Below, in pieces: positions 16,101 to 60,235 of a stretch of DNA of 63,031 nucleotides (within the stretch, counting starts at the first letter, position 1; each line of letters starts with the position of its first letter). The DNA comes from an uncultured bacterium (GTDB taxonomy: Bacteria; Bacillota; Clostridia; Oscillospirales; CAG-272): assembly GCA_949293405.1 (NCBI GenBank), contig CASFDI010000032.1:1-63031 (forward strand), given 5' to 3'. Below the pieces are notes generated by a model, which saw only the letters and a program-made list of their open reading frames with translations, was not told where the DNA came from and ran no database searches. Made by a program: the position numbers and the translations under genes.

Positions 16101-17327
16101 TTAATCCAGCACCAGGTGCACCGGCATACCGTCCCGCCAGACAAGAGCAGGTTCCCCTACAATCAGGGGCCGCAGATACTGCAAGCATTGCACGGTGATC
16201 TGATTGCCTTTACTATCGATGTAGGAATCGGGAACCTTGCGGATGCGGTTTGCAACTTCAGATACCGGAATACAACCCAGCGAGCACCTGTACGGTTCAT
16301 TTTCACGGATAAAAGTAACCATCAGTCCTGTTTTTCCCTGGCAAGCAAGCGAAACACCGGCCTCACCGGCGGAAAATGCCTCGGAGAGATCTGTTGCAGA
16401 GGCAACCGATGAGGCACAGCGCTGGCAAAGGCTCAGTTCGACAGAACGCACTTTACAGCCGATGGTTTCGCGAATGGCCTGCTCCAGGACTTTTCCGGTA
16501 CCGGCAAGATAACGATGGCCAAACACATCAGCAGCCCCGCTCTGACCGCCTTCCCCTACATATGTGCCGTCTGCAAATCGGATTCCCTCAGATACAGCCA
16601 CCAGCACATTGGGATGCACGGCAAGAGCATTCCGTATATCTTCAAGGAATGCATTCATATCAAAAACGCGTTCCGGCAGATAAATCAGATCCGGTCCGCC
16701 GTATCCGGCCAGCTGCGGCAATCCGGCCGCCGCAGTCAGCCATCCGGCATCCCGTCCCATGATCTCAACCACCGTTACCGCCGGAACGGTGTACACGGCA
16801 CAGTCGCGCAGCAGTTCCTGAATGGTTACCGCCACGAATTTTGCAGCACTGCCGAACCCGGGCGTGTGATCCGTTCCACACAGATCATTGTCTATGGTCT
16901 TCGGAATGCCGATGACCCGGATATCGTAATTCCGTTCTCTGGCATATGCGGCCACTTTATCCACTGTATCCATGCTGTCATTGCCGCCAATGTAGAAAAA
17001 GTAACGGATGTCGTATTTTGAAAACAGTTTAAACAGGCGCTCATACAGTTCCGGATCGTCCTCAAACGGAGGCAATTTCCTTCTGCAGGATCCGAGCGCT
17101 GCCCCGGGGGTCGTAATCAGCTCCTGCAGATCACGCCCCTGCGCGAACCGATCGGAAAGATTGATGATCTGTTCCCCGAGAAAGCCGTCAATCCCGTTTC
17201 TCATTCCATAGAGGGTACCGATCTGTTCCGCTTCAAGCGCCGCATGAATAACGCCAGCCAGCGTAGCATTGATGGCAGCGGTAGGGCCGCCGGGCTGTCC
17301 TACAATTGCATTTGACCGGATGTTCAT
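16101..17327 (-). CDS. pfp: pyrophosphate-dependent-type 6-phosphofructokinase
   Basis: PFK fold with GGNDS (16974-16988) in place of GGDGS and PKTIDND (16884-16904) in place of PGTIDND. MGR motif present. Confidence 0.85.
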
Positions 17328-18223
17328 GTGTTCTCTTCCTTTCTATTCAGACGTTGCCGTTCTGTAAACAGATACGACCGTCCGCAAAAACGGCAGTTTG
17401 CCTCCAGTTCACGAGGCTTCCCTTCCGCCTCCTGTTCGTCAAGCAGTTGTTCCAGTTGTTTTTGACCGAGCCGTCTGAGTCCCGAAAGCATCCGCTGTCT
17501 GCTGCAGTCGCAGCGGTAGGATACCTCCAACTGATCAAAAGTATCGAAAGGAATATCCCGCAGGGCAACGCCGGCAATATCGGTCAGTGTCATGCCGTCA
17601 TGAAGCAGCGCGGAAATGTTGTTCAGGTCGGCCGCATTGCGTTCCAGCAAGGAAACGGTCTCTTCATCCGCAAACGGAAGCAGCTGTACAATCACACCGC
17701 CCGCGGCAAGGCAACTGCCGTCCGGATTGATCAGGACTCCCAGCGCGCAAACCGTGGGGATCTGTTCACTCTCGGCATAGAATGCCGCAATGTCTTCCGC
17801 AATTTCACCCGAGCGCAGCGAGACGGTGCCGGTGTGCGGTTCCCCGTTTCCGTCGTCACGCACCATGTACAGCACGCCCTTGCCTACTGCCCTGCCGACA
17901 TCCAGCTTCCCGTTTGCCTTCCGCGGCGGATCGGCAAGCGGATGCTCAATATACCCTTTTACATTTCCGTAATAGTCCCCCACGGCGATCAGACGGCCCG
18001 TCTCTCCGTCTCCCTGAACGCCCACGGTCAACTGATTGTTCTGCTCTCCCATCAAAGATGCCATCATGGAAGTGGCTGTAAGCAACCGTCCGAGAGCCGC
18101 GCTTGCCGTAGGCGCGGTATGGTGGACCGCAATTGCGCTGTTGACCACCGCCGTCGAATCCATGACCAGAATCCGCGCACTGCCGTCCCGGGTCATGCCT
18201 CTTAAAATTTTTGAAGATTCCAT
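17324..18223 (-). CDS. hslO: redox-regulated chaperone Hsp33
   Basis: N-terminal region is typical of Hsp33. The C-terminal zinc centre is CDCS...CRFCG. 4-nt overlap with pfp. Confidence 0.88.
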
Positions 18224-18228
18224 ATCAT

Positions 18229-18993
18229 TCAGTCCTTTTTGACACGCGTAATGAAATACAGCCGCTCATCATTTTCCCTGTCTGGCCGGTGATCGATATC
18301 TCCGGAGATCTCAAGGATTTCAAAATGATGGCGCTGTAACTGTGAGATCAGCTCTTCCCTGGTATACATGCGTTCGGCCGTATGTGAATCCGAGCGACGG
18401 TACTGATGGGTCGGAGTCTCGGTAAAAAGTGAAATATAGAAATCACACAATCCCTTTTCTTCACAAAATGCATTCTGCCAGGCACAGAAAACATGTTTGT
18501 CCTCCAGGATATAGGCCTGTGTCCCGTAGATGTTGCGGAATTTGTAGGGGCTGTTGACATCGAACAGAAACAGGCCGTCAGGCGAGACATAATTATGCAC
18601 CAGGCGCAGACACCGGGATAACTGTCCCTGACCGGTGAGGTGATTGAGCCCGTCCAGGCAGCACACAGCCGCTTCCACCGTCCCGTAGAGTTCAAAGGAA
18701 CACATATCCTGACAGAGCCAGAGTACCTTGTCCTGACAGCGGGCTGTATCGGCACGGTTTCTGGCAATGCTCAGCATTTCGGGTGAAAGATCCACCCCCA
18801 CCATATCATATCCGCGTGCAGCAAGTGCCAGCGTCATGGAACCGGTGCCGCACCCAAGGTCCAGCACATCGTGTATCGGAGTGACAGCATAGCGATTAAT
18901 GCTTTCATGAATATAATCCGCCCATCGCTCATAATCGATATCACGATTGAGCACATCGTAAAACGGGGCCAGATCACGGTAAATGCTGTCCAT
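18229..18993 (-). CDS. class I SAM-dependent methyltransferase (substrate unknown)
   Basis: [12 protein letters not shown] motif I and DLSPEML. I prefer the second ATG (18991-18993) because AAGGAGG (19000-19006) then lies 6 nt upstream. The start lies 20 nt inside the helicase gene. Confidence 0.8.
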
Positions 18994-21241
18994 GGGCATC
19001 CTCCTTCTTTTCTTCCGTCATTGTCCCGCAGAAGCGCCGGATGACTTCTTCTCCGTTGAGCCGGTCCTCGGCAAATGCCAGACGCAAAAGCTCCGGCGGA
19101 ATCACATCGTCAAATTTATCAAAAGCGGGACATTCCGCATCGCTGACCAACTCACGCACATGGATGCCCTCACGGCGCAGACAGCGCGCAATATTTTCCT
19201 CAAGGGCTGCTCCTGCCTGCTGTTCTGCACGGAAGGTGATGTAATAGCATCCTTCCCGCTGGATTCCGCTGATACCGAACTGCGCCGCATGACGCAACAG
19301 ATACCGGTGCAGCGCCTGACAGGCGCGCGTCCCCAGCCACGGAAACAGCACCCACTGCATTCCCCCGATCGGGACCGACATGCGTTCGGAGAGGCGCGCT
19401 TTGCGCGCCAGTTTCCGCGCCGATGCAAGTCTTGCGGCGGCGTTTGGCATCAGATACCGGTATTCCTTATCACAGAGCAGGATTTCACGCATTTTTTCCA
19501 GGATCCGTGTATGCACAAATCCGGAATCCCCGGGCCAGGATATTTCTTTTTTCCCTTCCAGGTATTTTACGAAAATCAGATGCCGCTGCAGATCGGTATC
19601 CAACACTTCCCACAGTTTCCCTGCCAAGGCGAAAGTTTCCCCGATTGCAGGGGCGTCCGCAATGGTACCGATCTCCTCCGATCCGCACCGTACCGTGAAG
19701 TCTTCACTGTCCTTGAACACCGCATAAAAGCGGAATGATGAAATCACCCGCTCCCCCTTCAGTCCGATACCGAGCGACCGGTCTTCGTGAATCATCAGAT
19801 AGTCCTGCTCTACCATAGAGCGCAAAAGTTCCCGGTAGTGCTCACGCTCAAGCAAGGCAAAAGGCGGGTACGACAGCAACTGCTTCGCCAGTTCAGCAGG
19901 GGGCACGGAGCCCCGTGAAGCAACGATACTCAGCGTCTGGTGGAACGCCAGGCTGAACGGAAACCGCCGCGGCACAGGAGGCTCCAGGAAGCGGTCCTCG
20001 GTATACAGTTCAATCACCGCGATGCTCTTGAGCAACTCCCAGGGAATCAACTGCGGCAGAGGAGTATTGGGGAGAGGGGACTCTTCCCGGCAGATCACGA
20101 CCATCTCAGGCGGATTACCCCGTCTGCCGCTTCTGCCCAGACGCTGCAGAAAAGAAGCAACCGTATTGGGCGCCCCCATCTGCGCCACGCGGTCAAGCCG
20201 CCCGATATCGACCCCCAGTTCCATGGTTACTGTGGCGCAGGTGACCGCGACCGGAACAGACGGATCCTTCATTTTGGTTTCGGCCTCCTCCCGGATGGCG
20301 GCCGAGAGGTTTCCGTGATGAATCAGGAATACATCGGGCTCCTTACGCAGGCGTGCAATCTGACGCAGAGTCGCAGTCACCACTTCCGTCTCCTCGCGCG
20401 AATTGGAGAACACCAGACACTTCCGGTCCCGGACGCAATCATACAGGTACTCATAACCTGCGTCGATCGAGGCGTGACCGCCCGAATCCTCCCCGACCGG
20501 AACATCCTGCTTCTCATCCGGATTGGCAATATAGAAGTGCGCGACCCCCAGTTTCATCAACCGTTTCTGCTCCGGCGGCGGCGGTGCCTGTGTGGCGCGT
20601 CCGGAGCCTGAACCGAGCCAGGCGGCTGCAACGCGCAGGTCACCGACCGTGGCGCTGAGTCCGATCCGGCGCGGATGATGTCCGATCGCGCGTGCCAGCC
20701 TGCACAGCTGGCACAGAATCTGATTGCCGCGGTCAGAACCGATCATGGTATGAATCTCATCCAGAATGACAAATCTCAGCGCACCGAAAATCGCATGGAT
20801 AGAAGAAGAACGGTTGATCAGCAGACTCTCCAGCGACTCGGGCGTAATCTGAAGAATGCCGCGCGGGTCCTTGAGAAGGCGTGTTTTATGAGAAGCGCTG
20901 ACATCGCCGTGCCAGTGACAAACCGGAACACCGCTCATGTCCAGCAACTCATCGAGGCGCAGGAACTGATCGTTAATCAGACTCTTGAGCGGAGCAATAT
21001 ACAGAACCTGCACACCGGCAACCGTGTCGGCATGCCTCTCAAGATCCGCCAGGACCGGGAAAAAGGCTGCTTCGGTTTTTCCGGATGCAGTTGGCGAGGA
21101 AAGAAGCAGATTGTCATCGGTCTGCAGAATAACGCGTGCAGCATCGATCTGTGTCTGACGCAATTCTGTCCAGCCGTTGCGGTAAATAAATTCCCGAATA
21201 TAATCGGGAAACTCTGCGAATATACGGTCGGCTTCGGTCAT
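18974..21241 (-). CDS. Lhr-like DEAH-box SF2 helicase (Shango SngC / BREX BrxHI-like)
   Basis: Motifs PTASGKT (I), DEIH (II), SAT (III) and QRLGRSGRRG (VI), followed by a ~330-aa Lhr-type C-terminal extension. Confidence 0.8.
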   Translation of the reverse strand: MTEADRIFAEFPDYIREFIYRNGWTELRQTQIDAARVILQTDDNLLLSSPTASGKTEAAFFPVLADLERHADTVAGVQVLYIAPLKSLINDQFLRLDELLDMSGVPVCHWHGDVSASHKTRLLKDPRGILQITPESLESLLINRSSSIHAIFGALRFVILDEIHTMIGSDRGNQILCQLCRLARAIGHHPRRIGLSATVGDLRVAAAWLGSGSGRATQAPPPPEQKRLMKLGVAHFYIANPDEKQDVPVGEDSGGHASIDAGYEYLYDCVRDRKCLVFSNSREETEVVTATLRQIARLRKEPDVFLIHHGNLSAAIREEAETKMKDPSVPVAVTCATVTMELGVDIGRLDRVAQMGAPNTVASFLQRLGRSGRRGNPPEMVVICREESPLPNTPLPQLIPWELLKSIAVIELYTEDRFLEPPVPRRFPFSLAFHQTLSIVASRGSVPPAELAKQLLSYPPFALLEREHYRELLRSMVEQDYLMIHEDRSLGIGLKGERVISSFRFYAVFKDSEDFTVRCGSEEIGTIADAPAIGETFALAGKLWEVLDTDLQRHLIFVKYLEGKKEISWPGDSGFVHTRILEKMREILLCDKEYRYLMPNAAARLASARKLARKARLSERMSVPIGGMQWVLFPWLGTRACQALHRYLLRHAAQFGISGIQREGCYYITFRAEQQAGAALEENIARCLRREGIHVRELVSDAECPAFDKFDDVIPPELLRLAFAEDRLNGEEVIRRFCGTMTEEKKEDAHGQHLP

Positions 21242-21249
21242 ATTTCACC

Positions 21250-22590
21250 TCAGAATTCAAGATCGTCAAAAGAGATCGACGCCCCCGGTCCTGCAGCCTG
21301 CCCGGCAGGCGTATCCTGCGAATCTGACAATATCTGCTCGAAAGTAAGATCAGGATTTTCACGAAGCATATGCAAAACCGTCATGAAATCCCGGATCATC
21401 TCGCGAGGGGTTACCATTTCACCGGCACCCGGCCGGGAAAGCTGAGCCGAAAGAAACTGCTCCATCTGTGCAGCTGTAAGCTGCTCCTGTGTCCCCTCCA
21501 GCATGGCTGAAAGTTTCGACAGCCGGGTGATCAGGGCGAGCAACTCGTTGGGGGACAGAGCCTGCAGACGGATCACCGGAGAGGATAGATTCTGATAGCC
21601 GGCTTTTACGTACCGGCTGTCAGTCAGGCGGGAACGCAACGCGTCATAACTGAACAGTCCGCGTCTGGTGTCCTCCAGAAACTGCGGCGTCCCCCCGAAT
21701 ATAACGCCGAGGTGCGGTGCCAGCCCCTGCAGTGTATCGTTGAAAATACCGAGCATCTTTTCGTAATTTGCTTCACGGGCGATGCGGTTGGGGATCTTAT
21801 ACAGGTTGACGCACTCGTCAATGCATACCAGCAATCCCTTGTAACCAAGACGGACCGCCAGACATGCCCACAGTTTCATATAATCGTACCAGTTATCATC
21901 CCGGACAATATCGCTGACCGGTACCGGAAGTGCAGCGCGTGCCTCGGTTTTTGTCCCGAATTCCCCACGCAGAAAGCGCAGGCAGGCCTCCTCTTCTGCG
22001 TCCGCCCCACGGAAAAAAGCACGGAAATATGCCCGCAGTACCATCACAAAATCAAAACCGCAAACCTGGTCCGAAAGTCCGGCAAGCAGCCGCTCCGCAG
22101 TTGCTTCGGCAATGCTGCGTCCTTCCTCGGTGTCAGGCTTCTGCCCGGACTGGGCAAGCGATGCTGAAATTTCACTGCAGGAGCGACCGAGAACAGCGCT
22201 CAGTGCCATGCCGTTCGGGCACAGCCGGGAGGAAAGATTGTGAATAAGTTCCCGGTCAGTGGCAAGGCCGCCGCCGTTTCCTCCCGTAAGCCTTCGTTCG
22301 GGAGAGAGATCGGCGTCAGCGCACAGAAAATCACGCTCGAGCGCATTCCCGCGGATCAGTTGAATCAGGAAGCTCTTTCCGCTTCCGTAACGCCCAATCA
22401 GAAAGCGGGTAAAAGATCCGCCATCGGCACAGGTCTCCAGATTCTCAAGAAGTGAAGCAATTTCCTGTGTTCTGCCGATTGCAATGTAAGGAGCGCCGCT
22501 GCGCGGGACAACCCCGTTCGAAAGCGAATCGAGCAGTATTTTCAGAATCCGTTTTGGTATTCTGCCTTCATTTAACACACGAGCATCCAT
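21250..22590 (-). CDS. DUF2791-type P-loop ATPase (Shango SngB / BREX BrxD-like)
   Basis: Walker A GRYGSGKS (aa 66-73), Walker B LLVCIDE, ~446 aa. The N-terminal region before the P-loop and the overall layout match my recollection of DUF2791. Confidence 0.7.
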   Translation of the reverse strand: MDARVLNEGRIPKRILKILLDSLSNGVVPRSGAPYIAIGRTQEIASLLENLETCADGGSFTRFLIGRYGSGKSFLIQLIRGNALERDFLCADADLSPERRLTGGNGGGLATDRELIHNLSSRLCPNGMALSAVLGRSCSEISASLAQSGQKPDTEEGRSIAEATAERLLAGLSDQVCGFDFVMVLRAYFRAFFRGADAEEEACLRFLRGEFGTKTEARAALPVPVSDIVRDDNWYDYMKLWACLAVRLGYKGLLVCIDECVNLYKIPNRIAREANYEKMLGIFNDTLQGLAPHLGVIFGGTPQFLEDTRRGLFSYDALRSRLTDSRYVKAGYQNLSSPVIRLQALSPNELLALITRLSKLSAMLEGTQEQLTAAQMEQFLSAQLSRPGAGEMVTPREMIRDFMTVLHMLRENPDLTFEQILSDSQDTPAGQAAGPGASISFDDLEF

Positions 22591-24230
22591 GATTTCAACT
22601 CCTCACTATACTCTTCGACCACATGATATCCGGACGCATCTTCTTCAATAACGGTATCGCCTACCGTCTCAATCAGTGCCGCATTGACAGCCTCCGCAAG
22701 TGCCGATTCGGGCAAACCACACTGCTGCAAAAGGGCGGTTACTGCCAGTCGGTCGCCGCTCAGGAGGGCGCCTGCATACTGCTTCGCCGTCTCATCGCCC
22801 GAACGGGAGCGCTGGGTTGCGTCCACAGAAGAGTCCTGACGCACAAATCCGTCTGTCTGTTCCTGTCCGGACGCCGGAATACGGTCTGCCGGCGTCGGGT
22901 CAGCAGCGGAATCTTCTGTTCCGGGTTCCGGCTGCCAGGGCAGAACGGTAAGCCGTTCCGCATTGATCCAGGAATCCTGTTCAATGCGGGCTGCCGCACC
23001 CGCATCCAGCACACTGTCACATGCGTCATACCGTGATTCATAAGCCGGGCGCGTCATCGTGGTCCGCTCAGCTTCCTTCTGTTGTTGCTGTAAACGAAAA
23101 TGCGGCTCAAAAAATGCGTCCAGCATCTCACGGAACGGAACATCGGCGGCATTTACCGTCAAGCGACTGCGATAACTGTTCAACTGCCTGATTTTATTTT
23201 CCGTATATTTCACAGCTGCTGTAATCTGTTTGCGCCATGTTTCGGCGTGTGAAGCAGGACGGTACGATAATTCGATCCGGCATTTGTTCTCTTCGCAACA
23301 GACCGCTCCCAGAAAAGGCGTATGCGAATAGACGGTCGGTTCGGATGTGTCCGATCTCCTGTCTTCCAATAACCGTTCAACCACATGCCGCAGAACTGCA
23401 AGCATCAGTCCGATCCGTTCGTTCCGCGATTCCCCGTCAAACAGACGGCTTGCCTGCCAGCGATAATCTGAAAAAAGATCAATCAGGGCAATCAACTGAT
23501 CATTTCCCTCACAAGCCTGCCGGCATGCCAGATAGAACTCAGGCACCGCAAAACCAAGTGTAGCGGTATGCGGCACCTCCCTGAGCAGCTGCAGCGGAGG
23601 CGCTGTTCTGTGCAGCAGACAATAACTGAACAGATGCATGGACATGTACTTATGAATGGATGGGAAGTGTTTTCCGTATGCGGACCAGAGGCGACACAGA
23701 ATCTGTACCCCCTGCTGCGGCGGGATGGTATCGGAGAAATTCAGGACTTCATACACATACAGCCAGAAATAACTCTCTCCGGTATCCGGATATATTCCGC
23801 CGCGCACACAGGAACGCCAATACAGATACCAGCGGATCTGCTGATCGTCCAGCAAATGATACTGCGGCACCGTAGCGTAAAACGGCACAAAAGGCGCCTT
23901 ACTTCCCTCTTTGGAAAGCATGGGCCTGCCATCCCGGCGGAATCCGGCAAAGTACGGATACGGATGAACCGAACGATAAATGCTCACCCGATCGAAAAAC
24001 GGATTCCAATCCGGACAGTACTGCTCAGACAGCGCCTCATCTGCCACAGCAGTCAGAATACGCTGTCCTGCGTTCTCTGCCGGTTCCTTTGCGTGCTCCC
24101 GTGTATACACCGGCTGAACAGGCCTCTGTGTTGCAAACGGGCGTGACACCGGTCGGGGAGATGATTTCGGAAGGAGGCGGGAAATGTCCCAGAACGAATC
24201 TTCGTCCGGATCATTTTTTCGGTCGTTCAT
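22572..24230 (-). CDS. TerB-N/TerB-C domain protein (Shango SngA-like)
   Basis: aa 113-165 read FVPFYATVPQYHLLDDQQIRWYLYWRSCVRGGIYPDTGESYFWLYVYEVLN, which I recognise as the TerB-N signature. The C-terminal ~100 aa (...AVNAALIETVGDTVIEEDASGYHVVEEYSEEL) are TerB-C-like. AAAGGAG lies 7 nt before the ATG. Confidence 0.7.
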   Translation of the reverse strand: MNDRKNDPDEDSFWDISRLLPKSSPRPVSRPFATQRPVQPVYTREHAKEPAENAGQRILTAVADEALSEQYCPDWNPFFDRVSIYRSVHPYPYFAGFRRDGRPMLSKEGSKAPFVPFYATVPQYHLLDDQQIRWYLYWRSCVRGGIYPDTGESYFWLYVYEVLNFSDTIPPQQGVQILCRLWSAYGKHFPSIHKYMSMHLFSYCLLHRTAPPLQLLREVPHTATLGFAVPEFYLACRQACEGNDQLIALIDLFSDYRWQASRLFDGESRNERIGLMLAVLRHVVERLLEDRRSDTSEPTVYSHTPFLGAVCCEENKCRIELSYRPASHAETWRKQITAAVKYTENKIRQLNSYRSRLTVNAADVPFREMLDAFFEPHFRLQQQQKEAERTTMTRPAYESRYDACDSVLDAGAAARIEQDSWINAERLTVLPWQPEPGTEDSAADPTPADRIPASGQEQTDGFVRQDSSVDATQRSRSGDETAKQYAGALLSGDRLAVTALLQQCGLPESALAEAVNAALIETVGDTVIEEDASGYHVVEEYSEELKSWMLVC

Positions 24231-24262
24231 GGTCGCACTCCTTTCCTGATGCTATTCATACT

Positions 24263-24291
24263 ATTATAGCATGCGGGTGCTTGCTTGTCAA
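24263..24291 (-). promoter_or_regulatory. consensus sigma-A promoter of the TerB-ATPase-helicase operon
   Basis: Minus strand has TTGACA (24286-24291), a 17-nt spacer and TATAAT (24263-24268), about 30 nt upstream of the start codon. Confidence 0.7.
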
Positions 24292-24333: not shown

Positions 24334-24375
24334 AAAAAAAGACCGGCATTTTCCACTTGGCGGAAAATGCCGGTC
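24334..24375 (-). terminator. intrinsic terminator of ltaS
   Basis: GACCGGCATTTTCC / GGAAAATGCCGGTC 14-bp stem (24341-24375). On the minus strand it is followed by TTTTTTT (24334-24340). Confidence 0.8.
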
Positions 24376-28436: not shown

Positions 28437-28482
28437 ACAGAAGGAGGCAACCTGCTGTAACAGGTTGCCTCCTTCTGTTTTT
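28437..28482 (+). terminator. intrinsic terminator of the response-regulator gene
   Basis: 18-bp stem ACAGAAGGAGGCAACCTG / CAGGTTGCCTCCTTCTGT (28437-28478) followed by TTTT. Confidence 0.8.
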
Positions 28483-28984
28483 ACTGCAGACCGATCAGCT
28501 TTTTGAAAAAGCGTTTGACAGCGCTCTCTTTCCGGGTACGGACAGAATGGCCGAAATCCGAATAGTCCGAGGCTACCCTTACCTGCTCTTCACCGTATGT
28601 ATAGATGACTCTGCCGGACTCATCCATGATGGTCAGAGGGCCGGGACGGGAGCGTACCAACTTTACTGCGTCCACACAGGCATCGTGTGTCGCATACCGC
28701 TGTGACATCAGTATACGGTCGCCTGCGGCGTTCCGCAGACGGAAACGGAACGCCCCGGTATTATCGGTATAAATCTGGAATTTCGGGCACGGAACGGCAA
28801 CGGGAGAGCGCGCCGTCTGATCCTGTACCGGCGTGTCTGCCAACAGCGCATGCACCTGACGGATGAGATCTTCCGCCTGCTGCTGTGTTTGTGTCAGGGC
28901 GGTTGTTCCGATAATCATCCGGTTGGCGGCGTAAAGATATGCGACATATCCCGCCTGCAGCCGTTTAATCATGAATCTGCTCAT
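28481..28984 (-). CDS. YegP/DUF1508-family protein
   Basis: KFQIYTDNTGAFRFRLRNAAGDRILMSQRYATHDACVDAVKLV matches the DUF1508 repeat. A degenerate first repeat and an extra basic C-terminal tail are present. 4-nt overlap with the upstream gene. Confidence 0.65.
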   Translation of the reverse strand: MSRFMIKRLQAGYVAYLYAANRMIIGTTALTQTQQQAEDLIRQVHALLADTPVQDQTARSPVAVPCPKFQIYTDNTGAFRFRLRNAAGDRILMSQRYATHDACVDAVKLVRSRPGPLTIMDESGRVIYTYGEEQVRVASDYSDFGHSVRTRKESAVKRFFKKLIGLQ

Positions 28985-30588
28985 CTCTGTTTTCCTTTCT
29001 GGCGCTTGCGCGACCCATGTTTTTTCCGCACATGAAAGACCACTGCTGTAACGAGCACTGCCATCCCTGACAAGACAACCGCTGCCGCAACATACCGTAT
29101 CGCGTACGGATAAGTTGTCACCGATACGGATTTCGCCATTCCGTCAAGCGCGTCGAAAAGCGCCTGCGGATTTTCTGCTGAAACCGCTACTTCCGGATGA
29201 AAAACAATCTCTTTCCCTACCGTGTACACAAAACCGCCGAACTGCGCAAGATAGCCGCCGAGCTCGACACAACGAATGTCCCCCGTCGACAGATACAGGG
29301 ATTCATCCCACTGCCAATCTGAAGCCGCCGCAGTGAAAAAGAGTATTGCAGCCTGTTCTGCCTTAAGTTTTCCTGTGCAATTTTGCCACGACAAACGGCT
29401 GTCCGCCTCTCCGTACAGCGCCATCGAATAGCCGTCAATATCAAAGCGGCATCCGTCAAGCGACAGACTCGTGTAGGATACAACCAATCCCGCACTCATA
29501 GCGGTATCGCTGAGATAACGCGACCGGTATGCCTCCTTGAATGCAGTATAGGAGACCTCGGTAAGACCGTAATTCTCCGCGATCAGATCACGGTCTCCCT
29601 CTTCCCAGATTCCCTTCAGTATTTTTCTCGCCAGATGGGAAAAGCCAGGATTCTTAAGAGTCAGCGTACTGTCGGTGATGCGTGAAACCGCAATACCGCC
29701 TTCCCCATCCGGATCCGGCGCAAGTTCAATGCCCTGGTAATAGATCTGTGCGTCAAAATCCGTCCCGTCCATTTCCAGCGCCGCCGCTGTCACACCGTAA
29801 AAACAGCGCTTCAGGTACACATCGCAGGACTGCACGGACAATGTGCCGTGCGGCACATAGAAGCCGTTCATCTGGCTGGTGAGGCGTATATCCGAATGGT
29901 CAAACTGCATGCCCTCTCCCGCATAAAAAGCGAATGTGGCCAGCATCGACCCGGTCTCAATCTCCAGATGACAGTATGAAGCCGAAAGAGTCTGTTCCGC
30001 ATGAAAAACGGCATCAACCGTGTTTCCGATCACGCTCCCCTCAACCGAAGCATCCACGCCCTCCAACGCAATATGAAGCGCTGAAAACGGAGAAATTGTG
30101 ACCTCGCGGGCAGAAGCAAAATGGGAAAACCGCACCGTGCTGTTGCGGATGGTAAGGTTTCCCGCCGCCACCCGGCAGGCGAGCATAGACCCTTCAGCGA
30201 AAGTCAGTTCGGCATCATCAAAGCAGACATCACCCTGATCCGCCCGGATCCCTTGTGCAACCGTGAAATAACCGGTAATTCTGATGTCGGTCTTCTGGGT
30301 TGCCAGGACGCTGTAACGGTAATACTCGTACGAAACATAATCGGCAGTGATAAAATTGTGAAGCTGCAGCAGACGATTTTCCGGATCATAAACCGCACTG
30401 CCGTCGTGCAAAATATCCGATGCATTCTCCTCTGTAACCGCTACTCCCGCAACATACAGACCGTAAGGCGACTCGACGACATCGCCCGGCAGATCAGCCT
30501 CATCGGATGCACCTGCCGCGATCAGGAACAGAGCGATCAGTATTGCCAGTATCCCGACCGATACCGACAGGCGTTCCTTTACACGCAT
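28981..30588 (-). CDS. hypothetical surface protein with N-terminal signal anchor and C-terminal TM anchor
   Basis: MRVKERLSVSVGILAILIALFLIAAG at the N-terminus and AAAVVLSGMAVLVTAVVF plus a basic tail at the C-terminus. The middle has irregular beta-helix-like repeats. GGAGGA lies 6 nt upstream, inside the tgt 3' end. Confidence 0.6.
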   Translation of the reverse strand: MRVKERLSVSVGILAILIALFLIAAGASDEADLPGDVVESPYGLYVAGVAVTEENASDILHDGSAVYDPENRLLQLHNFITADYVSYEYYRYSVLATQKTDIRITGYFTVAQGIRADQGDVCFDDAELTFAEGSMLACRVAAGNLTIRNSTVRFSHFASAREVTISPFSALHIALEGVDASVEGSVIGNTVDAVFHAEQTLSASYCHLEIETGSMLATFAFYAGEGMQFDHSDIRLTSQMNGFYVPHGTLSVQSCDVYLKRCFYGVTAAALEMDGTDFDAQIYYQGIELAPDPDGEGGIAVSRITDSTLTLKNPGFSHLARKILKGIWEEGDRDLIAENYGLTEVSYTAFKEAYRSRYLSDTAMSAGLVVSYTSLSLDGCRFDIDGYSMALYGEADSRLSWQNCTGKLKAEQAAILFFTAAASDWQWDESLYLSTGDIRCVELGGYLAQFGGFVYTVGKEIVFHPEVAVSAENPQALFDALDGMAKSVSVTTYPYAIRYVAAAVVLSGMAVLVTAVVFHVRKKHGSRKRQKGKQR

Positions 30589-58129: not shown

Positions 58130-60235
58130 TCATCCTGCAGACGATCCACCGCTGTCCCCATCATGATGTTTTCTCTTCAGGATCACATAGCCGTACGGCT
58201 TCAGAGTAAAGCCATCCTCGCCTGCCGTCTCTTTGGTACAGAGGTCCGTGTATGCACGCGTGGAAGGAACTGTTACCGCATCAGAACAGAAATTCATCAC
58301 AAAAATATAGTCCTGCAGGCCGTCCGACCGCACAGCAGCATGCACCCCGGCGGGCAGATTCCCGAGCGGAGCGACGATGCCGGTCTGGCGGGCAAGCGCC
58401 TCATAGAACGCATGCAGCTGTTCTTCCCCGGTACGGGCCGCGATATAATACACATGGCCTTTTCCCGCTCTGCGGTGTGTGATCAGAGGCATGCCGGCAT
58501 AAAACTCACTTCTGTATACCGCAACCGGCTCCGCCGTTGTACAGTGAATCAGCTCGCACAGGTCCTGCGCCTGAAAGGAGCCTTGCAGTCTGAGCACATT
58601 TTCCTCGCAATATGCCGCTTCCACGCGCTCCGGTTCGTAAAGCGCGTCAATCTCCTCGCACCGGATTCCGAACAATTCATCAAGGCCCACACCCGGCCAT
58701 CCGCCCAGATGACACAGGTCATTTTCATTGACATATCCGGTGAGATAGGTGGCAACCAGTGTACCCCCGCTTTCGGTAAAGCGGCGCATTTTTTCGCCCA
58801 TGCCGTCGGGCGCCATGTACATCATCGGAGCAATCAGAAGATCATAGCCGTCAAACGGATCATCACGCCCGATAATATCGACATTGATACCCGCTTCGCA
58901 GAAATAACGGTAATGTTCCTGACAGGTTTCCGGATAACGGCGCCGTTTGTTCAGTCCGCGCAAATCTTCAATCGCCCAGCGGTTATCCCAGTCGTACAGC
59001 AGCGCGACCCGGGATACCGTAGCGGTTCCTACCAACTCATCGAGTTTTCCGAGGGTCTCTCCCAGCTCGCTGACCTCGCGGAACACGCGTGTCTGCGCAT
59101 GTCCTGCATGGTCTACAACCGCACCATGCAGTTTTTCGCAGGCACCACGGCTTTTGCGGAACTGAAAATACTGGACAGAATCCGCTCCGTGTGCGATCGC
59201 ATGAATGGAAGAAAGCGCATGCATGCCCGGGCGCTTCAGTTTATTGACATCCATCCAGTTGACCACGCTGGGCGTGCTTTCCATCAGGAAGAAAGGCTTT
59301 TTTGAGGGATGCACACAGCGCATCAGGTCATGTGCAAAGGCGGTCTGCACAGCCGTTACATCATCCCCGACCCCATAGGCGTGCCAACGCGGATAACTGT
59401 CCCAGGAGACCAGATCAAGCTCACGCGCCAGCACCCGGTAGTCCAGTCCGGGATACAGCCCCATCAGGTTGGTGGTTACCGGCAGGTCAGAATACTGCCG
59501 GATCGCTGCAATCTCGTTTTTCATAAACGCGGTTGTCTGCCGGGTGACAAACCGCTTCCAGTCCAGATTGAGCCCATGCGTGGAAGTTTCTCCGTTGGGC
59601 AGCGGAGGCTCTATTTCATCAAAACTGCGGAAAGTATGGCTCCAGAAAGCGTTCCACCACTGTTGATTGAGCGTATCGATATCGCCGTATTTTTCACGAA
59701 GAAAATCCCGGAATGCGGCACGGCAGAGATCGCAGTAGCATTCGCCTCCGTACTCGTTCGACAGATGCCAGAGAATGACGCCCGGATGCCGGCCGTAGCG
59801 CTCTGCCAGTTTTCCGTCGATTTCCGCTACCTTTGCCCGGTAATAGGGAGAAGTATAACAGTGATTGTGTCTCACACCGTGATGATTGCGTACACCCATA
59901 TTGCTGACCCGCATTGCCTCGGGATGATTCCGGTCAAGCCACGCAGGCCGTGCCCCCGACGGGGTGGCAAGTACGGTGCGGATCCCGTTCTCATACAAAC
60001 GGTCCAAAGTCTCGTCCAACCATCCGAAACTGTAGACCCCTTCTTCCGGCTCCAGTGCAGACCAGGCAAAAATCGCCACGGTTGCGCTGTTGATATGAGC
60101 CTTGTGCATCAATGAAATATCCTGCTGCAGAATATCAGGACTACTAAGCCACTGATCCGGATTATAGTCTCCTCCATGGACAATATGAGGAAAAGTTGTC
60201 AGCGGTGCAAACCTGACAGGGTTCTGTTTTTTCAT
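58130..60235 (-). CDS. GH42 beta-galactosidase
   Basis: HGGDYNPDQW N-terminus, a catalytic NEYGG region and a ~700-aa three-domain layout. Confidence 0.9.
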   Translation of the reverse strand: MKKQNPVRFAPLTTFPHIVHGGDYNPDQWLSSPDILQQDISLMHKAHINSATVAIFAWSALEPEEGVYSFGWLDETLDRLYENGIRTVLATPSGARPAWLDRNHPEAMRVSNMGVRNHHGVRHNHCYTSPYYRAKVAEIDGKLAERYGRHPGVILWHLSNEYGGECYCDLCRAAFRDFLREKYGDIDTLNQQWWNAFWSHTFRSFDEIEPPLPNGETSTHGLNLDWKRFVTRQTTAFMKNEIAAIRQYSDLPVTTNLMGLYPGLDYRVLARELDLVSWDSYPRWHAYGVGDDVTAVQTAFAHDLMRCVHPSKKPFFLMESTPSVVNWMDVNKLKRPGMHALSSIHAIAHGADSVQYFQFRKSRGACEKLHGAVVDHAGHAQTRVFREVSELGETLGKLDELVGTATVSRVALLYDWDNRWAIEDLRGLNKRRRYPETCQEHYRYFCEAGINVDIIGRDDPFDGYDLLIAPMMYMAPDGMGEKMRRFTESGGTLVATYLTGYVNENDLCHLGGWPGVGLDELFGIRCEEIDALYEPERVEAAYCEENVLRLQGSFQAQDLCELIHCTTAEPVAVYRSEFYAGMPLITHRRAGKGHVYYIAARTGEEQLHAFYEALARQTGIVAPLGNLPAGVHAAVRSDGLQDYIFVMNFCSDAVTVPSTRAYTDLCTKETAGEDGFTLKPYGYVILKRKHHDGDSGGSSAG

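Follow-up and report, generated by a model that had tools for sequence, protein, structure and literature searches.

A complete Shango system that appears to be inherited with a housekeeping operon in uncultured gut Clostridia

How does a phage defence system come to lie among housekeeping genes, and what keeps it there? The question is raised by a 63,031-nucleotide stretch of DNA from an uncultured gut Clostridia lineage (contig CASFDI010000032.1; the whole stretch is called the window below), in which an earlier note, made by reading the sequence without database searches, had proposed a Shango-type triad in a core-gene neighbourhood. Shango is protective in E. coli (Millman et al., 2022) and in P. 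aeruginosa PA14 (Johnson et al., 2023), where it sits in a variable ‘core defence hotspot’ (Johnson et al., 2023). On plates it protects 10- to 100-fold in P. aeruginosa and ~10-fold in E. coli, and more strongly in liquid culture. The literature agrees with the earlier note that Shango protects against phages by an unknown mechanism, and our search of it found no mechanistic or structural Shango paper. Judged by profile matches and motifs, positions 18974-24291 of the window encode a complete and intact Shango system, sngA-sngB-sngC. The locus is a further member of the known system; what is new is its evolutionary and structural context.

All three proteins have the Shango models of PADLOC as their best matches, near full length. 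The first is matched by SngA (1.7e-43, residues 88-549 against model positions 81-527 of 528), the second by SngB (1.2e-148, 493.9 bits, near-full coverage) and the third by SngC (5.5e-227, 754 bits, residues 8-733). The PADLOC models of BrxD (8.9e-37, 125.3 bits) and BrxHI (3.3e-126, 420 bits) also match the second and third proteins, with scores far under those of SngB and SngC, and SngA has no counterpart among the BREX models. Pfam places TerB_N (6.6e-15, 55.8 bits) and TerB_C (1.4e-6, 29 bits) in SngA, both above the Pfam cut-off, BrxC_BrxD (PF10923, the former DUF2791; 9e-133) in SngB, and DEAD and Helicase_C in SngC. NCBIfam does not model Shango, and the sng proteins score far below the cut-offs of its BrxD and Lhr-like models (for BREX_BrxD against SngB, 126.7 bits with a cut-off of 350). 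The features by which a Shango system is recognised were therefore found: an SngA profile match with TerB_N and TerB_C, an SngB score above that of BrxD, an SngC score above that of BrxHI, and intact motifs; the matches lie far above chance level and the assignment is secure. The canonical TerB domain (PF05099), which belongs to the literature description and lies outside the detection models, is lacking, as is the typical but non-defining Shango context of a defence island, hotspot or mobile element. Of the families that the earlier note proposed to search for, TerB_N, TerB_C, DUF2791, DEAD and Helicase_C were recovered and DEAD_assoc was not.

The catalytic motifs read by eye in the earlier note are all in place. 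In SngB, Walker A (GRYGSGKS, residues 66-73) and Walker B (LLVCIDE, residues 253-259) are invariant in 28 orthologues, and the DUF2791 layout is borne out by the Pfam match. The SngB C-terminus is a disordered tail that ends in a conserved peptide, ISFDDLEF in the window protein and K[IV]S[LI]FD[IL][DE][IF] in relatives; on a Paenibacillus plasmid it reads DFADFEL, and on a C. estertheticum plasmid it is unconserved. By sequence, SngB has no matches in the PDB. SngC contains helicase motifs I (PTASGKT, residues 50-56), II (DEIH, 161-164), III (SAT, 196-198) and VI (QRLGRSGRRG, 366-375), all invariant in 29 orthologues. The best solved structures for its helicase core are Lhr (5v9x, 2.7e-26) and YprA/MrfA (6znp, 1e-25). 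The Lhr-like models of NCBIfam align to residues 15-476 and stay far below their cut-offs (TIGR04121, 209.6 bits with a cut-off of 850), so that the full-length match at cut-off that marks the Lhr/ligase-associated DEXH family was not obtained. The earlier note had assigned SngC an Lhr-type C-terminal region. The likeness to Lhr and MrfA holds for the helicase core, and BrxHI can be aligned along the entire protein; for the final 356 residues, neither Pfam (DEAD_assoc included) nor the PDB gives a match. These C-terminal ~350 residues are conserved among orthologues, and on alignment grounds they are better described as BrxHI-like and otherwise without a known family. The window sngC also ends in a private 18-residue tail (window 18974-19027; conservation 0.04).

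Conservation is far lower in SngA than in SngB and SngC, and is concentrated in an N-terminal peptide, the TerB-N core, a mid-region and the TerB-C end. The N-terminal short motif DSFWDISRLLPK at residues 11-22 is followed by a disordered linker. Its consensus is [DE]xFWD[IL]xxLxPKK, and D11, F13, W14 and P21 are at least 90% conserved across 79 diverse family members. The folded core spans residues 61-430 and includes TerB_N (Pfam, residues 102-223); the stretch FVPFYATVPQY...YEVLN, which the earlier note gave as a TerB-N signature at residues 113-165, lies at 114-164, a trivial offset. A second disordered linker (residues 431-475) leads to TerB_C (Pfam, residues 479-546), in agreement with the TerB-C-like C-terminus noted before; it is modelled as a compact domain of three helices, a beta-hairpin and a helix (residues 476-551). 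The AlphaFold2 model of SngA, calculated from a 79-sequence alignment, has a predicted local distance difference test (pLDDT) score of 83; an earlier run on 10 sequences (pLDDT 56) was not used. The diversity of the alignment came from an exhaustive search of representatives, and a profile search with the first alignment added no sequences. Foldseek comparison of the model with the PDB and BFVD returned nothing at E<=0.001, and by sequence SngA has chance-level PDB matches only. As modelled, with good confidence, the 370-residue core is without a relative among solved structures. The TerB-C domain weakly resembles LysR-type winged-helix DNA-binding domains (Foldseek, probability 0.5-0.84, E>1), a hint from the model that this domain may have a winged-helix-like fold.

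At E<=1e-30, the SngA family numbers 307 representatives; among those of full length, the closest to the window protein shares 36% identity with it. TerB_N was found in 79/79 and TerB_C in 71/79 of the family members, and canonical TerB (PF05099) in 0/79, the window protein included, at E<=0.001. Hydropathy analysis found no membrane segments in SngA, SngB or SngC, which shows all three as predicted soluble cytoplasmic proteins. These observations bear on a common description of the system: a review table lists ‘TerB domain’ for Shango, and a September 2025 preprint states that the working of TerB-domain defence proteins is unclear and repeats the idea of ‘membrane surveillance’. SngA lacks both a canonical TerB domain and any membrane segment. 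The modelled core resembles no solved structure, the TerB-C domain shows a weak likeness to a winged helix, and SngA and SngB each bear a conserved tethered peptide. Together these features argue against membrane surveillance, an idea that is without support in these sequences.

We compared the site across relatives by tblastn and clustering of open reading frames (ORFs). A scan with HslO, taking one genome per species, gave 80 loci with HslO identities of 53-65%, all from metagenome-assembled genomes (MAGs) of uncultured gut Clostridia. In 30 of them, sngA, sngB and sngC lie in identical order directly upstream of a methyltransferase-hslO gene pair. The conserved array in one clade is rpsF-ssb / ispE / [sngA-sngB-sngC] / methyltransferase / hslO / SOD-like / pfk / metK / recD2 / mreB-like, with the triad between ispE and the methyltransferase gene in most relatives and an overlap of 4 nt between the sngC stop and the methyltransferase start at most Shango-bearing loci. 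Eight loci of the same clade are empty: ispE directly adjoins the methyltransferase gene, the two being 9-15 nt apart or overlapping by 4 nt, without any insertion. Two further loci of the clade are empty with a different upstream gene. In total, about 10 of the 40 tips in the clade lack Shango, in ~7 separate places on the tree. Shango is never present in the sister clade (~35 loci, with murC upstream), and none of 80 more distant metagenomic loci from a methyltransferase scan (best identity 52%) carries it; that scan returned no same-species contigs. The methyltransferase-hslO pair itself occurs in 71/80 of the distant loci, well beyond the Shango-bearing clade. No alternative cargo or other defence system was seen at the site in the loci compared, which argues that it is not a swap-in/swap-out hotspot. 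One ancient insertion upstream of methyltransferase-hslO, followed by vertical descent and about seven losses, is most likely as the most parsimonious history.

Some loci differ in detail. Uniform empty ispE-methyltransferase junctions were seen in L016, L026, L041, L042, L052, L054 and L080. In locus L014 (4826-7026), sngC is split over two reading frames, residues 1-253 being encoded in frame 2 and 215-738 in frame 1. The cause is either a frameshift, which would make the gene a pseudogene on the way to being lost, or an error in the MAG assembly. Some lineages have a small YerC/TrpR-like gene (motif GLSTATISRVSR) directly upstream of the methyltransferase gene. It stands between sngC and the methyltransferase gene in L005 (8937-9212) and between ispE and the methyltransferase gene, at an empty site, in L022 (8951-9238); it is also present in L014, L019 and L051, and is not found in the window. 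The 26-nt overlap of sngC with the methyltransferase gene in the window, against 4 nt in most relatives, suggests that the stop codon has moved specifically in this lineage.

The sng genes share the history of their neighbours. Our congruence tests used linked genes (within 10 kb) and neighbour-joining trees. The tree of SngB and SngC, rooted on plasmid-borne Firmicute homologues, mirrors the groupings of the HslO and methyltransferase tree, and within it the SngB and SngC of the clade are monophyletic relative to the plasmid homologues (42-46% identity). Mantel correlations of the distances (p<=0.001 throughout) are 0.85 for SngB and 0.88 for SngC against HslO, 0.87 and 0.85 against PFK, and 0.80 and 0.85 against RecD2, which lies ~8 kb away. 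The HslO-methyltransferase distance correlation was 0.90 in a separate earlier comparison (Pearson). The mean p-distance of SngB and SngC is 0.23-0.31, and that of the neighbours is 0.31 for HslO, 0.36 for PFK and RecD2, 0.37 for the MreB-like protein, 0.41 for the methyltransferase and 0.49 for IspE; only MetK diverges more slowly than SngB and SngC among the flanking core genes. SngA, at 0.52-0.58, diverges about twice as much as its two partners. The ratio of nonsynonymous to synonymous substitution rates (dN/dS), here a rough measure because dS has reached saturation in even the most similar pairs, is 0.03-0.09 for sngB and sngC, 0.12-0.17 for sngA, and 0.01-0.15 for hslO, pfk and the methyltransferase gene. 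These values indicate purifying selection on all three sng genes.

Outside the clade, Shango is found in mobile contexts. Homologues of SngB are present in 696 plasmid records, of which 542 are conjugative; a search of phage genomes with SngB gave no match. Two Firmicute plasmid loci carry the same triad. On the Paenibacillus peoriae plasmid (L085), the TerB-N protein of the Shango-like triad has 1052 residues and a PLD-like gene follows downstream. On the Clostridium estertheticum plasmid pCF002-344 (L086), the helicase gene is directly followed by one for an 848-residue ABC-type ATPase, and relaxase and IS110 genes flank the locus. A second gut lineage (L001:10001-15390 and L002:10001-15345) encodes SngB and SngC that are 55-59% identical to those of the window. 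Its Shango genes lie in a non-mobile context between ireB/ribF and nrdR/truB, with ychF ~4 kb downstream, and have the same consensus promoter 5' of sngA.

The operon layout is the one described before (Table 1). The three ORFs are tightly packed and co-directional, sngA and sngB overlapping by 19 nt (22572-22590) and sngB and sngC being separated by 8 nt (21242-21249), and the promoter proposed at 24291 was confirmed. It is the sole perfect consensus match within the 10 kb scanned and lies 5' of sngA, as expected of a single transcription unit; inside the operon the promoter-like matches are weak only (9/12). The operon G+C content of 0.52-0.585 is slightly above the window average. The terminator upstream insulates the Shango promoter against upstream transcription, and 19/28 orthologous loci have a terminator-like hairpin no more than 130 nt upstream of the -35 box of sngA. 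The pattern TTGACA-N14-TGnTA[TAC]AAT was found 5' of sngA in 29/29 loci, ~30-45 nt before the start codon. We rejected the perfect promoter as a feature specific to Shango: among all fetched loci the pattern has 85 matches per 1.2 Mb, of which 56 are at sites other than sngA (for example, downstream of hslO in the murC clade). As such promoters are common in these genomes, the one at sngA indicates strong autonomous expression and nothing unique to Shango. Across the window and 27 relatives, its 17-nt spacer keeps a semi-conserved ACGAT and a Firmicute-type TRTG -16 element, and the flanking intergenic DNA is unconserved. A by-eye check of 28 aligned promoters for an operator or inverted repeat near the -10 box found inconsistent complementarity and no consistent element.

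Table 1. Positions of the Shango genes, their expression signals and the genes that follow them in the window.
Feature	Position	Strand	Description	Basis
sngA	22572-24230	-	552 aa, TerB_N + TerB_C protein	PADLOC SngA, Pfam, conservation profile, AlphaFold2, hydropathy
sngB	21250-22590	-	446 aa, BrxD-type P-loop ATPase (BrxC_BrxD, formerly DUF2791)	PADLOC SngB, Pfam
sngC	18974-21241	-	755 aa, superfamily 2 (SF2) helicase, BrxHI/DruE/DpdJ group, Lhr/MrfA-like core	PADLOC SngC, Pfam, PDB
Intrinsic terminator	24341-24375	-	16-bp stem, T-run; ends upstream LtaS-like gene	
Sigma-A/sigma-70 promoter	24263-24291	-	TTGACA-17 nt-TATAAT with TG extended -10; 12/12 consensus match	
sngA ribosome-binding site	24238-24246	-	GGAAAGGAG	Direct reading of sequence
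Class I S-adenosylmethionine (SAM)-dependent methyltransferase gene	18229-18999	-	Core gene	Pfam Methyltransf_25
hslO	17324-18223	-	Packed directly behind methyltransferase gene	Pfam HSP33
pfk	16101-17327	-	Packed behind hslO	Pfam PFK

The earlier note was silent on the 26 nt by which the 3' end of sngC overlaps the methyltransferase start. Given this overlap, the methyltransferase gene is probably co-transcribed with sngC. Promoter and terminator scans from the methyltransferase gene to the end of pfk (16101) detected neither signal, so that the cassette probably drives these core genes, the sngA promoter presumably being read through methyltransferase, hslO and pfk. We also considered the methyltransferase as a fourth Shango gene. 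Its NCBIfam matches are all below cut-off and it looks like a small-molecule-type class I enzyme; for this reason, and since the methyltransferase-hslO pair occurs with and without Shango, the idea was rejected.

The core-gene neighbourhood claimed by the earlier note extends over the entire window, which consists of housekeeping genes. They include envelope and division genes (the dcw cluster, with penicillin-binding protein, murE, murF, mraY, ftsW, murG and ftsZ, and an LtaS-like sulfatase), genes of DNA replication and repair (mutL, mutS, dnaB, recG and rarA) and other core genes (pfk, hslO, ychF, tgt, miaB, ftsH, tilS, gdpP, comEC and leuS). No integrase or transposase was found in the 63 kb, tRNA and Rfam scans of the window gave nothing, and no other defence or mobile-element genes are among its annotated genes. 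Families of the PglX, PglZ, PglW, pglY and BrxC type were likewise not found among the ORFs scanned across the window. Elsewhere in it, a GH42 beta-galactosidase gene beside leuS (58130-60235, minus strand) is the only clearly non-housekeeping metabolic gene that we noticed. A 535-residue protein without a Pfam or NCBIfam match (28981-30588, minus strand) is followed by a DUF1508 (YegP-like) protein (28481-28984, minus strand), the pair sitting between a response regulator and tgt.

Combining these data, we consider it likely that the locus is an intact Shango system, inherited vertically in the clade, acting through SngC as motor, and retained in part through its promoter. SngC falls into a helicase clade with BrxHI, DruE and DpdJ (Tuck et al., 2024), with which its PADLOC ranking agrees. 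DruE is reported, by several groups in 2026, to act on phage DNA intermediates that are forked or contain single-stranded DNA (ssDNA). In the mechanism we propose, SngC, a BrxHI/Lhr-like SF2 DNA helicase-translocase, would be both motor and effector, and SngB, a BrxD-type P-loop ATPase, would serve as an ATP-driven switch or as a loader for SngC, in keeping with the recurrence of the BrxD/BrxHI pairing in type 2 BREX. SngA, with its TerB-N core, C-terminal TerB-C domain and N-terminal tethered peptide, would be the adaptor or sensor; as the fast-evolving partner it is the candidate for the specificity part. The three proteins are probably held in one complex by the tethered peptides at the ends of SngA and SngB. 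In an infected cell, this complex may act on phage DNA, its most likely targets being intermediates of replication or recombination that contain ssDNA if the analogy to DruE applies, and would block replication by unwinding or by displacing proteins. The sngA promoter, by driving methyltransferase, hslO and pfk, may help to explain why the cassette is retained.

Several points weigh against this reading. The mechanism is drawn by analogy. No nuclease, toxin, membrane or pore domain is recognisable in SngA, SngB or SngC, and no effector was found; the same absence makes direct interference, or hand-over to host nucleases, likelier than abortive suicide. In the C-terminal 356 residues of SngC, no Pfam match lies below E=0.28 and no PDB match below E=0.78. 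The genes used for congruence are linked to the triad and the trees are neighbour-joining trees, and the saturation of dS applies to every rate ratio given above. Homologous recombination of an ancestral empty allele would explain the tidy empty junctions equally well. The exact SngA, HslO and LtaS-like proteins of the window were not found in public gene catalogues; the only near-exact record of the sng proteins is an SngA, 99% identical, from two short contigs of metagenomes. Finally, long vertical retention, core-like rates and fusion to a housekeeping operon are atypical for defence systems.

This last point leads to the alternative that survives best, in which the triad is a domesticated housekeeping module that acts mainly in host DNA transactions, such as removal of R-loops or stalled-fork structures, or repair, and not in immunity; this corresponds to the DNA-processing role that the earlier note drew from comparative genomics of Ter-domain proteins. 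The earlier note had held that universal conservation at this locus with a core-gene phylogeny would, together with a lack of phage protection, speak against defence. The triad is conserved, with a core-like tree, in most of the clade and not in all of it, which leaves the family assignment intact and makes a non-immune role a live rival. A constant site over a deep clade, SngB and SngC rates as slow as or slower than those of six of the seven flanking core genes, translational coupling to the methyltransferase-hslO operon and a helicase core like those of the repair helicases Lhr and MrfA are what domestication would predict; a window free of other defence or mobile-element genes and a site that never holds a different system would also fit. 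However, the triad is dispensable, being missing from about a quarter of the clade tips, from the whole sister clade and from all more distant relatives. The faster divergence of SngA fits a component that faces changing targets, the best model matches are experimentally validated defence proteins, and homologues are frequent on conjugative plasmids. We therefore regard domestication as rather unlikely. A related and slightly less improbable claim is that the triad is by now a fixed, core-like part of the chromosome, owing either to a host genome-maintenance role or to a promoter entanglement that penalises deletion.

The same distribution could reflect an integration hotspot, at which Shango was gained repeatedly, whether through separate entries into different species or through recombination among relatives. 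On the core-gene tree, loci with and without Shango are scattered, and the very clean empty sites, with ispE 9-15 nt from the methyltransferase gene, look more like an unoccupied ancestral site than like independent deletions; moreover, core defence hotspots with conserved flanking genes are known in P. aeruginosa, and Shango is mobile elsewhere. Repeated gain is nevertheless improbable. The Sng trees and distances mirror those of the flanks, including genes 5-10 kb away, and the monophyly of the clade SngB and SngC with respect to plasmid homologues, together with a derived 4-nt sngC/methyltransferase overlap common to deep branches, is what vertical descent predicts. No integrase, transposase or repeats were found, and no alternative cargo was seen at the site.

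A third alternative is that the proteins are non-functional and the genes a decaying relic, kept only since the cassette promoter drives downstream core genes. The probable entanglement of the operon with methyltransferase-hslO-pfk and the split sngC of L014 would accord with decay; the three ORFs are, however, intact here and in ~29 relatives, all catalytic motifs are invariant and dN/dS is well below 1, which makes a relic very unlikely. The reading of the locus as a remnant or accessory pair of type 2 BREX beside an unrelated TerB-N protein, to which the matches of the BrxD and BrxHI models might point, is effectively refuted by the far higher scores of the Shango models (494 against 125 and 754 against 420 bits), by an NCBIfam BrxD score far below its cut-off, by the lack of PglX, PglZ, PglW and BrxC-type genes among the scanned ORFs, and by three translationally coupled genes that are co-inherited in ~30 species.

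If the triad has become a fixed, core-like part of the chromosome through a host role or through its promoter, what keeps this defence system in place would be entanglement, functional or transcriptional, and not the usual gain and loss. The locus documents an exception to rapid turnover, a defence system with the behaviour of a core gene within an operon of housekeeping genes, which bears on how immune genes become fixed. The ~30 orthologues and ~10 clean losses provide a natural series for studying Shango function without a mobile context. The orthologue set also separates a slow engine, SngB and SngC, from a fast SngA and points to SngA as the specificity or sensor part, and the features of SngA suggest concrete mutants for testing. 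The locus leaves the definition of Shango unchanged, that of a validated system without a known trigger, effector chemistry or structure.

Comparison with known systems places the locus more precisely. It has the same three proteins as validated Shango, in the same order and with the same domain content (TerB_N and TerB_C, a BrxC_BrxD ATPase and an SF2 helicase); the host here belongs to an uncultured gut Clostridia lineage. Unlike the P. aeruginosa system in its variable hotspot and the plasmid homologues, the triad of the window is embedded in a housekeeping operon and most likely vertically inherited. Whereas the literature speaks of a TerB domain and of membrane surveillance, the window SngA has neither PF05099 nor a membrane segment, and it is very divergent, with at most 36% identity to full-length cluster representatives of the family. 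The BrxD and BrxHI proteins of type 2 BREX (Pgl) are homologues of SngB and SngC along their entire length and make up the same two-gene module, but here the module is paired with a TerB-N/TerB-C protein, and the PglX methyltransferase, PglZ phosphatase and PglW kinase are not among the scanned ORFs. DruE of Druantia and DpdJ belong to the same SF2 clade as SngC. They are multi-domain proteins of 1500-2100 residues, DruE being described as a helicase-nuclease, whereas SngC has 755 residues and no recognisable nuclease, and its partner proteins differ from theirs. The repair helicases Lhr and MrfA (YprA) have a helicase core like that of SngC, but its C-terminal 356 residues match neither the DEAD_assoc region of Lhr nor the DUF1998 region of MrfA, and the operon partners differ. 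The literature also counts Bunzi BnzA and Dionysus DinB, together with Shango, as Ter-related defence. Descriptions of these two proteins mention TerB or TerB-like domains and, within their systems, transmembrane segments or partners that form pores; in contrast, SngA carries the TerB_N and TerB_C flanking modules only and is predicted to be soluble.

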